64,000 nucleotides of DNA from a virus (Duplodnaviria; Caudoviricetes): positions 15,842-79,841 of IMG/VR virus record IMGVR_UViG_2937884906_000001; one strand, given 5' to 3'. Under the pieces are notes generated by a model. The model ran no database searches. It saw nothing but the letters and a program-made list of their open reading frames with translations, and was not told the origin of the DNA. Numbering within the stretch: the first letter of the stretch is position 1; the number at the start of each line of letters is the position of its first letter. Positions 3,695 to 53,388 of the stretch are shown here, in pieces. The translations under genes were made by a program, and so were the position numbers.

Positions 3695-3779
3695 TACTAT
3701 AGGGTGAGCAGAATGCATCACTCACATACAAGATGCTGATTTCCTACCTCTCAGTTCCTACCGAACTGAGAGGTTTTTT

Positions 3780-38987: not shown

Positions 38988-39063
38988 AAATCACTCTTCC
39001 TATAGTATCGCGTTTGACCATCTCCCGGTTTGGGATTAGGGATTTGGTCAAGAGACGCGGAAG

Positions 39064-39092
39064 AAAGGGCGCTCTTCGGGGCGCCCTTTTTC
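39064..39092 (+). terminator. Intrinsic terminator (probably bidirectional)
   Basis: AAAGGGCGCTC-TTCG-GGGCGCCCTTTTT. Confidence 0.85.
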
Positions 39093-39427
39093 GTTCTTGC
39101 TAAGTATTAGAGTGCTATTACTTGGTTTTCCAAAAATTTTTGTAGAGTATGTGTGGGTCCATTCCCGGCGTCGAGGCAGGAAAAGCCTAGGAAAATGGTG
39201 TACTCCTTCTCTTGTTCCTGCGAACTGGTGGGTTATTCTTAGTTATCGGCAATGAGTTGTTGCTGGTGGCGGGGCTCCCCCGCGAGGTCTCCCTCGGGAG
39301 GCAAGGGCGGAGCCATGTCTGAACCGGAAGTTGCTCAATCGAGCAGCGCCAAGCCCCGAAGGGGGCGAGGACGGGGAAGGTGCGCCTGATCCACAACCTG
39401 CTCAATTGAGCAAAACGGAGAGTGAAA

Positions 39428-40818: not shown

Positions 40819-40828
40819 CATTTCTAGG

Positions 40829-41073
40829 CCGCTCCACGGTCGTGTGGGGGAGCGGGACGCGCCGGAAGCTCGGGAGAGCGCTTGGCTGCACTTCGGGTGC
40901 GGGAGACGGGTCAACGCGGACGGAGGGACGACGACCACATCCCGAGAGAGAGCGCCTGCGCCACATCCTAACCGAGCGGTTGGGGCTGTGTCTGCAACTT
41001 ATTGTTGTGGAATTCAGCCTCGGTTCGGGCTCTGGACGTGGCGCAGGCGGTGGCGGGGGCCAAATCAGCGCTC
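40829..41073. ncRNA. Candidate large structured non-coding RNA
   Basis: Nested inverted repeats including a perfect 12-bp stem 40953-40964/41038-41049; no credible ORF. Confidence 0.4.
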
Positions 41074-41147
41074 CACCAAGTTTTTCTGTCACGCGTCCAC
41101 ATGAGTTTTCCAGTTGTCTTTTGCAACCAGTTTCGCGGAGAAATCAG

Positions 41148-42938: not shown

Positions 42939-43236
42939 CGCCCAGGGCGATAGCGACCAGCATTACCGGAACCTCAATCTTTACCAGCGCCTGGGAAAGC
43001 CCGCCGAGTCCATGCTCGGCTGCTACTGGCAGATCGACGAGAAGGCCTACCACTTCTTCGAGGCCCTACTGCCACCTCGCTACTGCGCCGGTGGCTTCCG
43101 CCTCAGCGAGCGCCTGACCGGCGACATCGCCGCGACCTATCTAAAGGTCGGCGCCCACTACTGGTGCGGGTTCACGGATCTGGGCGACACGCCGGCCACC
43201 GCTCTGGTGGCGCACATCGCGTTGGAGCTCGCATGA
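42922..43236 (+). CDS. DUF1419-like protein
   Basis: WQIDEKAYHFFEALLPP..GFRLSERLTGDIAATY. Confidence 0.55.
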   Translation: MQQLTSAQGDSDQHYRNLNLYQRLGKPAESMLGCYWQIDEKAYHFFEALLPPRYCAGGFRLSERLTGDIAATYLKVGAHYWCGFTDLGDTPATALVAHIALELA

Positions 43237-43596
43237 GGCTACGCCGCCGCAAAGGCAGGCGAACCGGGCCCGCCGTTCCCAACGCCGGACAGCTCATGGG
43301 CTGACCGTCTCTACAACCGCGGCTGGTGTGACGGTCGCGCTACCATAGCTGATCCGAGAGTTGTTCCCGAATGCGTGGTCGACGATCAGCCAACACAGGA
43401 GGCCATCATGAAGAAGTAACCGCACCACCTCCGCCGGACTAATATAGCGCCCCCATCAACCACCGCTCCTTCCGAGCACCTACGGCGCATCGGACTTCAA
43501 CCAAATCTCTCAATTGGCACTCAACTAGAGCTCATGGGATCAAAATCGATTTAGTTCGATCGGGTCATGAGACGAACGGCTTGCCATAATACCCCC

Positions 43597-43721
43597 TCGC
43601 TGAATGCGGGTCTGCAACGACCTAAACTTGTGACCCGTCCACCGCATGAGCGTGGACCGAGCCGCTCCTTCGAGAATGGAGCACCTCAAGGCCCTCGCCA
43701 CCAGCGAGGGCCTTTTTCTTT
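43597..43721 (+). ncRNA. Candidate ~125-nt sRNA or attenuator leader
   Basis: Extended -10 TGcCATAAT (43582-43590), three hairpins, terminator AAGGCCCTCGC-CACCA-GCGAGGGCCTTTTTCTTT. Confidence 0.5.
43688..43721 (+). terminator. Intrinsic terminator just upstream of the kinase genes
   Basis: 11-bp perfect stem plus T-run. Confidence 0.88.
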
Positions 43722-43738
43722 GCCCACGGAGAGCGACC

Positions 43739-44233
43739 ATGAGCAGGACCACCATCACCACGGCATCTGATCCCAACACCAAATACCACGACGTCTGTAG
43801 CCAGCTCGAATTCAGCGGTTGGGCCAAAATCAGCTGCGGAGAATATGCGTCGATCTGGGCTCACCCCGATTGCCCCGACTCCGTCTTGAAGGTCGGCCAC
43901 GACCTCAGCGACGGCTGGCTGGACTACGCCAAGTCCTGCACCAAGACCCGCTCGCCCCACGCGCCCCGTATCCACGCGATCGAGCTCTACGAGAACTTCT
44001 TCTACGCCGAGATCGAGCGCCTCGCGCCTCTCTCACCCGATCGCTACTACGAGGAAAGCCTCAGCCGGCATCCTTATCCCGAGGACGTTCCGACCCACTC
44101 GCTGGCATGCTTCCTGCGCCGTACGGAGCGCGTCCGCCGCAAGTTCACGGACCATCTCGCCGACTACCATGAGAACAACTTCATGGTCCGGCCCTCCACC
44201 AACGAAATCGTCTGCACGGACCCATGGTGCTAA
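43739..44233 (+). CDS. T7 gp0.7-like protein kinase 1
   Basis: GEYASIWAHP..VLKVG, DYHENN, TDP align to T7 kinase GHFSAAYSHP..VIKVG, DMHSGN, TDP. Confidence 0.75.
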   Translation: MSRTTITTASDPNTKYHDVCSQLEFSGWAKISCGEYASIWAHPDCPDSVLKVGHDLSDGWLDYAKSCTKTRSPHAPRIHAIELYENFFYAEIERLAPLSPDRYYEESLSRHPYPEDVPTHSLACFLRRTERVRRKFTDHLADYHENNFMVRPSTNEIVCTDPWC

Positions 44234-44234
44234 C

Positions 44235-44777
44235 ATGAGAGCCCAGATCAATCACGCCCGCCGCAACGCCTGCTTCAGCGAAGCCGCACTGCGCCAAAAG
44301 GGATACCGTCAGATCGGCCGCGGAGCCTTCTCCAAGGCGTTCGTCCATCCCGACGCCCCCGAAGTCGTCATCAAGGTCGGCAAGCTCTACAGCAAGCGCT
44401 GCGGTCTCACCGATGGCTTCCCGCACTTCGCCCAGCAACTGCTTGAGGGCGAGATCCATTCCAAGTTCTTCCCCAAGGTCTACGGGCTCGTGATCGACCC
44501 CGTCAAACAGCTCTTCTGGTGCATCATGAAGCGCTACCGGAAGGTGCGGGGCGCCAAGAAAACGGCCGAGCAGATCAGCACCACACACAAGGCCATCACC
44601 GGCTCCATCAGCGGCACCAAGCCGGTCGGCCGCTTCCGCAAGGCGATGGAACAGCTGATCGACCATCGGTTCATCTCGGACATTCACGCTGGCAACGTCC
44701 TCTGGAACGGCGCCACTCCCATCGTCATCGACCCAATCTGCATCCGGCCGCGTTACCAAACGGAGTTCTACGCATGA
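44235..44777 (+). CDS. T7 gp0.7-like protein kinase 2
   Basis: IGRGAFSKAFVHP..VVIKVG, DIHAGN, IDP. Confidence 0.82.
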   Translation: MRAQINHARRNACFSEAALRQKGYRQIGRGAFSKAFVHPDAPEVVIKVGKLYSKRCGLTDGFPHFAQQLLEGEIHSKFFPKVYGLVIDPVKQLFWCIMKRYRKVRGAKKTAEQISTTHKAITGSISGTKPVGRFRKAMEQLIDHRFISDIHAGNVLWNGATPIVIDPICIRPRYQTEFYA

Positions 44778-46051: not shown

Positions 46052-46120
46052 CCAACCATCCACTTAACGGCAACGCATGTTGGCTCGATCTGGCACCTGG
46101 ATCGGGGCGTGGATGGTTGG
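46052..46120. other. Intergenic three-way-junction structured element
   Basis: Perfect 12-bp stem CCAACCATCCAC/GTGGATGGTTGG enclosing two hairpins. Confidence 0.7.
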
Positions 46121-52946: not shown

Positions 52947-53188
52947 ACATCAACCCCAACACCCTGGCCAACATCTGCGCCGTTGCGGCGGAACGCTTCA
53001 AAAACCACGCGAAGGAGTTCTGCAAGCTGATCGATTACAAGCCGAAGGCCAACACCGGCACGACGATCGACATGATCCCTCACGGTGAAGGCGCCCGTCG
53101 CTTGGCAGAGCAGTTCGAGCTGCAGGCCAAGGAAGCCGAGGAATACGCTGCCATCTTCGCGGAGGCAGACACCATAAAAGTGAGCTAG
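52943..53188 (+). CDS. Hypothetical protein
   Basis: GTGA-coupled ORF. Confidence 0.55.
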   Translation: MNINPNTLANICAVAAERFKNHAKEFCKLIDYKPKANTGTTIDMIPHGEGARRLAEQFELQAKEAEEYAAIFAEADTIKVS

Positions 53189-53388
53189 TCCTTGTCCGAC
53201 TGGCGTTCACGTCGCTCGATCTCGCGCTCCACGGCCTCACGGATAAACGCCGCCCGCCGATTTTTTCCGCCTGCAATTTGATCAATCTTCTCCGCCATGC
53301 CCTTGGGCAGTCGGACAAGTATTGGCTTCACATTCAATGGCGGGCGTCCCATTCGCCTGCGACTATCCGATATCGGTATTTGAGTCAA
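53185..53388 (-). CDS. Ribbon-helix-helix repressor with GRPP motif
   Basis: MGRPPLNVKPILVRLP..KIDQIA..RAAFIREAVE; TTG start with GGAGAG SD. Confidence 0.8.
   Translation of the reverse strand: MTQIPISDSRRRMGRPPLNVKPILVRLPKGMAEKIDQIAGGKNRRAAFIREAVEREIERRERQSDKD

Follow-up and report, generated by a model that had tools for sequence, protein, structure and literature searches.

A conserved non-coding cassette with a predicted terminator upstream of gp0.7-like kinase genes in a Mesorhizobium prophage

Leaders, terminators and small RNAs in temperate phages

To our knowledge, gene regulation in the temperate phages of rhizobia is almost unstudied. In better known phages, several arrangements place a terminator or a structured RNA ahead of a gene block. 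The nut sites of phage λ consist of a boxA and a boxB hairpin located upstream of early terminators, with two such sites being present per phage, and partial terminators inside phage gene arrays are a common means of setting expression ratios. A different solution is found in P4, P1/P7 and N15, where small RNAs (CI, c4 and CA, respectively) derive from the leaders of potentially harmful prophage operons. These RNAs are tied to premature termination and pair with complementary repeats carried by the same transcript, the immunity RNA of P4 being flanked by short repeats.

In the AlpA system of P. aeruginosa, the promoter is followed by an intrinsic terminator (tB) placed right before the first ORF, which is bypassed by the antiterminator (PMC7969949). 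Phage HK022 achieves antitermination with RNA only, its put RNA being a ~70-nt element with two long bulged stem-loops, present in two copies per phage, that acts on the zinc-binding domain of RNA polymerase (PMC9378689). The concept of very short phage ORFs, in turn, is exemplified by the bar minigenes of λ (PMC2490762).

The provirus and the genes downstream of the cassette

The sequence analysed here, called the window throughout, is a 64-kb stretch (G000:C1:15842-79841) of an IMG/VR provirus record of 79.8 kb, estimated to be 97% complete. Late genes lie on the minus strand, from ~35.7 kb down to ~6 kb of the window, while early genes form a long plus-strand array running from 35.8 kb to ~62 kb, with the integrase at its end. 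The early array encodes a Prim-Pol/D5 helicase, two gp0.7-like kinases, a protein with a PEP-utiliser mobile domain, ligases and RtcB. The host is considered to be Mesorhizobium because the close homologues of kinase 2 bear Mesorhizobium names. The kinase genes and the start signals of the first one are as follows.

43728-43741, plus strand: Shine-Dalgarno sequence GGAGAG and ATG of kinase 1; N-terminus conserved in P0002 and P0003
43739-44233, plus strand: kinase 1, phrog_15752 (T7 gp0.7-type kinase), E 1e-14
About 44235-44777, plus strand: kinase 2, phrog_15752 (T7 gp0.7-type kinase), E 8e-13

Both kinases retain the VxK, DxHxxN and DP motifs. The tandem pair occurs only in the window, L002 and L003, the other syntenic relatives (including L019, L026, L028, L029 and L032-L034) having the kinase-2 type only, immediately 3' of the cassette; this restricted occurrence suggests a gain or a loss of kinase 1 inside this lineage. 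An ATG at 43646, in the kinase frame, was rejected as the start of an N-terminal extension, given that a stop closes it in L002 and that alignment indels exclude a conserved ORF over this segment.

A gap of 502 nt (43237-43738) separates kinase 1 from a DUF1419-like gene on its other side. A 23-codon, Arg-rich micro-ORF (43233-43304, starting MRLRRRKGRR) overlaps the stop codon of this upstream gene through an ATGA; it is missing from relatives and probably spurious.

Anatomy of the cassette

Relatives were gathered by protein look-ups with kinase 1 and kinase 2 and by DNA-pattern scans, which yielded 11 distinct homologous intergenic cassettes, the window included. Their comparison delimits a conserved, non-coding cassette of ~330 nt (about 43397-43738). 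The stretch flagged in a first-pass annotation, as a self-contained ~125-nt sRNA or attenuator, corresponds only to its 3' half, and the conserved, structured region reaches ~190 nt upstream of the transcription start then proposed at 43597. The cassette comprises the following elements, the last being found in three relatives.

43397-43419, plus strand: strong Shine-Dalgarno sequence (AGGAGG, 43397-43402) and mini-ORF of 3 sense codons plus stop (43408-43419); 11/11 cassettes
43443-43457, plus strand: box B, a -10-like sequence made of T/C-ATAGCGCCC, two variable bases and ATC; exact in 10/11
43463-43481, plus strand: first copy of a direct repeat, with the second copy at 43662-43686
43471-43494, plus strand: hairpin B1, 3' of box B; 85% of cells paired in 11 sequences
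43582-43594, plus strand: box C, -10-like CATAAT (43585-43590) with an upstream TG; candidate internal promoter
43597-43608, plus strand: invariant 5' motif (TCGCTGA...), which can form a 3-bp mini-hairpin; 11/11 copies
43608-43623, plus strand: hairpin 1, 5 bp with a 6-nt loop, followed by a conserved U(U)AA(A)C; 55/55 cells paired
43637-43657, plus strand: hairpin 2, predicted in the window and identical in L029
43664-43682, plus strand: hairpin 3, preceded by a conserved CCGCU; ~9-10 of 11 copies
43688-43721, plus strand: predicted Rho-independent terminator, 11-bp stem (8 GC), 5-nt loop and U-tract; stem 43688-43714, T-run to 43721
L019:11400-11500 (minus strand), L026:2390-2480 and L028:2375-2465: structured insert, closing stem of 7-8 bp and T-loop-like hairpin (GGTTCGA)

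The most upstream element, the mini-ORF, has a fixed length (exactly three codons in 11/11 cassettes), with the encoded peptide being variable (MKK, MKI, MKL, MKA, MTY, MSM or MCM). Box B, from which the L032 copy deviates by a single base, is a candidate promoter or protein site. In the hairpin that follows, B1, one pair switches from A-U to G-C (4 vs 4 sequences), and in slid controls pairing drops to 50% or less. A variable spacer then separates hairpin B1 from box C. The upstream half also holds the first copy of a direct repeat that had been described as offset by 200 nt. The repeat is real; it is composed of a 10-mer (43463 and 43662, offset 199) and an 8-mer (43474 and 43679), with 7 extra bases in the second copy. 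The 10-mer pair is borderline when compared to chance (6/100 shuffles contain two or more copies), and only the core ACCGCT recurs in relatives, in some of them.

All the features that had been listed for the 3' half were found in the sequence, namely the -10-like box (43582-43590), the hairpins (43606-43638, 43637-43657 and 43664-43682) and the terminator (43688-43721), although their conservation is uneven. The box had been taken for an extended -10, TG-C-CATAAT. Six of the 11 copies share its 11-nt sequence unchanged, two have CTTAAT and three lack the box; its TG is not conserved. Neither box B nor box C has a recognisable -35, and a consensus promoter scan calls nothing at either of them. 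The 5' motif is kept even in copies without box C. In a sliding comparison with L003, identity is highest over 43593-43637 (0.87-0.90), where it equals that of the best-conserved kinase codons.

Hairpin 1 (arms 43608-43612 and 43619-43623) shows compensatory double changes at two pairs across the 11 sequences, and none of 500 shuffles paired as well. This small hairpin is the conserved one; the longer structure proposed at 43606-43638 (GCGGGTC..GACCCGT) can be formed in the window but is specific to it. At the site of hairpin 2 other copies carry a different hairpin, and the consensus fold does not resolve it. One stem position of hairpin 3 covaries (C-G vs G-C) and its loop is recurrently CGCG-W-GAA, the stem being different in L002. 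As a whole, the unit 43597-43721 is predicted to form four hairpins in a row (-55.4 kcal/mol, z -4.97; 0/200 shuffles as good), and to keep a z of -2.89 when the terminator is removed. The leaders of L003 and L002 minus their terminators fold no better than shuffles (z -0.2 and -0.7).

The fact that hairpin B1 also covaries argues for selection at the level of plus-strand RNA across the whole cassette. Together with the retention of the 5' motif and hairpin 1 where box C has been lost, it indicates that the selected RNA starts upstream of 43597, in some phages at least. Judged from sequence comparison, the functional unit is not in all cases the "self-contained" stretch of 125 nt.

The terminator and its replacement

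The terminator hairpin has a predicted ΔG of -21.4 kcal/mol, with values of -20.7 to -25.8 across four copies. The earlier placing of a strong terminator just ahead of the kinase ATG holds: the interval to the start codon at 43739 is 17 nt long and contains GGAGAG. In 8/11 copies a canonical terminator occupies the same place, with 17-34 nt and only the Shine-Dalgarno sequence between it and the start codon. Stem sequences differ between copies, 5 pairs showing compensatory changes, and identity to L003 falls here to 0.2-0.5, so that structure alone is kept. The element is the top-ranked terminator-like site between 35 and 55 kb, where only one other strong site is found on the plus strand. 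The GC-rich stem-loop, the U-tract, the conserved position and the covarying stem are those expected of a Rho-independent terminator. The interval from terminator to start codon is too short to accommodate a promoter, meaning that in these 8/11 copies the downstream genes would need read-through.

In L019, L026 and L028 a structured insert of ~85 nt takes the place of the terminator, so that not every cassette would have a terminator gate; the insert of L026 is not followed by a U-tract. Despite the T-loop-like hairpin, identification of the insert as a tRNA was rejected, since neither ARAGORN nor Rfam calls one.

More generally, a search of the whole window against Rfam 15 at gathering thresholds returned no matches, nor did an Rfam search of L026. 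The best sub-threshold match in the window was RF00519 (19.4 bits against a gathering score of 41 bits, E 0.14), at 43660-43727 and thus mostly on the terminator. ARAGORN found no tRNA or tmRNA genes in the window and 10 related loci. The cassette belongs to no described RNA family.

Distribution and mobility

Ten of the 11 cassettes reside in related, syntenic Mesorhizobium prophages. The remaining one (L013) is located in provirus G001, upstream of a NADAR/YbiA-like gene instead of a kinase. No homologue of the terminase or primase of the window was detected in G001, and the only proteins common to both are a lysozyme and a small RHH protein. The two cassettes are nevertheless 75-88% identical, with none of the neighbouring genes being shared; conservation begins exactly at box B (88% over 75 nt), and the G001 cassette is better conserved than the genes flanking it. 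Such transfer between unrelated phages without neighbours suggests that the cassette carries its own specificity. In every case, G001 included, it is co-oriented with an ORF and directly 5' of it.

The G001 case speaks against the specific link to gp0.7-like kinases that had been proposed, as does the absence of the cassette at more distant kinase homologues (L005/L007, L008, L010 and the Nitratireductor locus L035). One DNA-pattern match (L014) was dismissed as chance. Blastn of the region gave no match among 50,697 phage records or 72,556 plasmids, and kinase-based locus searches of viral and genome collections yielded little. No paralogues of the element were found in the window, a shared 9-mer at 40990 marking none, and a covariance model of the 5' motif and hairpin 1 (R1) detects a single copy in each of G000, G001 and G002. 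The distribution seen so far is narrow, being confined to Mesorhizobium prophages.

Comparison with known systems

As in the λ PR'-qut-6S RNA-tR'/Q and AlpA systems, a short transcript would end at an intrinsic terminator preceding the first gene of the operon. In those systems the operon is expressed only once the polymerase becomes terminator-resistant, as proposed here for the cassette, and termination leaves the leader as a distinct small RNA, a by-product likewise predicted for the cassette. An intrinsic terminator between the candidate promoter region and the first ORF is indeed found in 8/11 copies. No sigma-70 -35/-10 promoter with a factor-binding element was recognised, nor any Q- or AlpA-like domain in the ~40 ORFs searched with Pfam. 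The cassette differs from both systems also in having early or accessory genes downstream, where those systems have lysis or late genes, and in that its conserved element would lie in the transcribed part.

With λ N/nut, the cassette shares a linear conserved motif followed by a short hairpin, the stem of which covaries in the cassette, and a position in an early array, upstream of a terminator dividing two gene blocks. The motif appears not to fit the boxA consensus, having only ~4 bases in common with the boxA of λ; also unlike in nut, there is one site per genome instead of two, and the terminator is intrinsic and immediately adjacent. ORF scans found no conserved N-like Arg-rich protein, the micro-ORF at 43233-43304 being absent from relatives.

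The resemblance to putL and putR of HK022 lies in a structured, presumably cis-acting stem-loop RNA near the 5' end of early transcripts. However, the stems of the cassette are short (5-8 bp), the element is single-copy and it has no sequence similarity to put. With the immunity leaders of P4, P1/P7 and N15, the cassette would have in common a small RNA that arises by premature termination ahead of potentially harmful prophage genes. It departs from them in its repeats, which are direct, not loop-complementary, and not conserved. Finally, the mini-ORF recalls the bar minigenes of λ in being a very short ORF with a strong Shine-Dalgarno sequence on a phage early transcript, but it has three codons instead of two and, in the 11 cassettes, its length is conserved and its sequence is not.

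Proposed function and alternatives

A cis-acting leader with a conserved 5' element is favoured because of the gating anatomy, the RNA-level selection and the mobility of the cassette. From sequence data, we would give an even chance to the cassette acting in cis, as a terminated leader or as a gate for antitermination, and releasing a ~125-nt RNA besides. In what follows, the direction of transcription is presumed, as are the activity of the promoters, the efficiency of the terminator and any antitermination. The cassette would be a cis-regulatory element inside the long co-directional early/accessory gene array of a temperate Mesorhizobium phage. Transcripts would arrive from upstream or start at box B, or both, and also start at box C in the copies that have it; the polymerase would copy the 5' motif, hairpin 1 and the next two hairpins before halting, in most cases, at the terminator that precedes the ribosome-binding site. 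The default products would be short terminated RNAs, of ~125 nt when initiated at box C and ~265 nt when initiated at box B, and expression of the two gp0.7-like kinases, as of the genes further downstream, would depend entirely on polymerases that read through. The 5' motif and hairpin 1 would constitute the recognition element rendering the polymerase terminator-resistant, this being nut-like, put-like or a site for a putative phage factor. In this way, the cassette would split an earlier from a later expression class.

A leader gating the downstream genes had been one half of the original suggestion, and it is the better supported one, since it fits the anatomy (terminators in 8/11 copies, 17-34 nt from the start codon, with a covarying stem); it does not extend to the three relatives lacking a terminator. 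Further observations count against a gate: each provirus has a single copy of the 5' motif and hairpin 1, when λ and HK022 have two such sites; the -35 is missing, with the promoter scan being empty; the L003 and L002 leaders, minus their terminators, fold no better than shuffles; and no antiterminator-like protein was found by Pfam or PHROGs among ~40 ORFs. The last result would be explained if the element acted like put, without a dedicated protein. A more elaborate version, rather unlikely in our estimation, is that the 5' motif and hairpin 1 represent an antitermination RNA of rhizobial phages, either self-sufficient (put-like) or dependent on a phage factor, with an obligatory three-codon mini-ORF, an exchangeable 3' module (terminator or ~85-nt insert) and a leader doubling as regulatory sRNA.

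The main rival is a stand-alone trans-acting sRNA gene, in which box C would be the promoter, the 5' motif a seed and the hairpins a scaffold ending in an Hfq-type terminator and U-tail; host or phage mRNAs would be regulated, with low kinase read-through being incidental or secondary. We regard this possibility as tentative and somewhat improbable. It would account for the exact coincidence of the conservation peak with the predicted 5' end, where many sRNAs have their seed, for the retention of the 3' terminator while the distal hairpin sequences vary, and for the transfer of the module between unrelated phages independently of neighbour genes. The weak, sub-threshold likeness of 43660-43727 to RF00519, an alpha-proteobacterial sRNA family, points in the same direction, as does the swapping of the terminator in three relatives for another structured module that may form an RNA 3' end; an exchangeable 3' module fits equally well an RNA needing a defined 3' end. 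Measured against Hfq-type sRNAs, the cassette has the terminator in 8/11 copies, the promoter box in 6/11 and a conserved 5' end. However, the -10 box is degenerate or absent in 5/11 copies with the motif behind it being kept, and the conserved structure extends ~190 nt 5' of the supposed start, the proposed unit being just the 3' half of a longer cassette. Moreover, a trans-acting RNA needs no fixed position and orientation right before an ORF start. As for phage-internal targets, complementary 10-11-mer counts in the 64-kb window equal those of shuffles, and the best duplex there (-29.4 kcal/mol) is within the range obtained with shuffled seeds (-27.4 to -30.9). A self-contained sRNA with its own promoter, the other half of the original suggestion, is thus possible but unsupported, and no evidence was found for the anti-defence decoy offered as its role, no complementary target in the phage exceeding the shuffled controls.

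It is also conceivable, though unlikely, that the cassette is a passive operon boundary, whose terminator ends the upstream unit or constantly damps the kinase block, with the boxes being ordinary weak promoters and the hairpins having no specific role. Partial terminators do commonly set expression ratios within phage gene arrays, the stability of the middle hairpins is not significant in two relatives and the Pfam and PHROGs scans of the ORFs revealed no trans factor. Such a boundary leaves unexplained, nevertheless, the 5' motif, the covarying hairpins 1 and B1, the fixed three-codon mini-ORF and the 75-88% cassette identity in a provirus sharing no neighbouring genes; in addition, as no promoter can be accommodated after the terminator, the kinase block would be silent if the boundary were fully efficient. 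Very improbable, finally, is an attenuator or riboswitch-like device in which the 3' arm of hairpin 2 would pair with the 5' arm of the terminator to form an antiterminator, with a ligand, a protein or the translated mini-ORF as the controlling factor. Positions 43649-43657 of the window could pair with the terminator 5' arm at 7/9 positions, and a conserved mini-ORF, presumed to be translated, lies upstream. The alternative pairing is restricted to the window, though, being unrecognisable in L002 and L003, the mini-ORF is ~270 nt 5' of the terminator, too distant for classical ribosome-coupled attenuation, and no riboswitch family matches.

If confirmed, the terminated leader favoured here would be the first defined termination/antitermination module in a Mesorhizobium prophage, or else the cassette would provide the first phage sRNA in such a prophage. 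The block placed under its control would consist of host-takeover or anti-defence-type genes, that is, gp0.7-like kinases in the window and a NADAR-like gene elsewhere. Its conservation, which exceeds that of the surrounding genes, and its passage from one phage to an unrelated one suggest that the cassette is a portable part for regulation, equipped with a specific recognition element. The fixed three-codon mini-ORF, in turn, offers a clean system to ask what minimal ORFs do. Given the narrow known distribution and the resemblance to known layouts, specialists may find the cassette moderately surprising.

Other elements in the window

A small RHH-like protein (53188-53388, minus strand; Pfam RHH_1, 17.4 bits, below the cut-off) is encoded antisense to the plus-strand early array. 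It shares 39% identity with its G001 counterpart and is absent from G002; as G002 has the cassette, this protein was rejected as an obligatory trans factor.

A non-coding stretch of 282 nt at 40819-41100 folds at -141 kcal/mol (z -3.6); it was rejected as a paralogue of the cassette. Another unit formed by a promoter-like box, a putative short RNA and a strong predicted terminator occurs at 38995-39098, where a CCTATAGTA box at 38999 is followed by a 13-bp terminator (39062-39091), within a gap of 435 nt before the gene at 39422. Boxes of the CCTATAGTA type are also present at 1490 and 35736 and, on the minus strand, at 3703 and 6539.

A further short non-coding element, at 46053-46118, corresponds to L017:1499-1566 (G001:5468-5530) and is 89% shared with G001. 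Its 12-bp closing stem, which surrounds two inner hairpins, shows compensatory changes between both phages, and the element is a candidate structured ncRNA.
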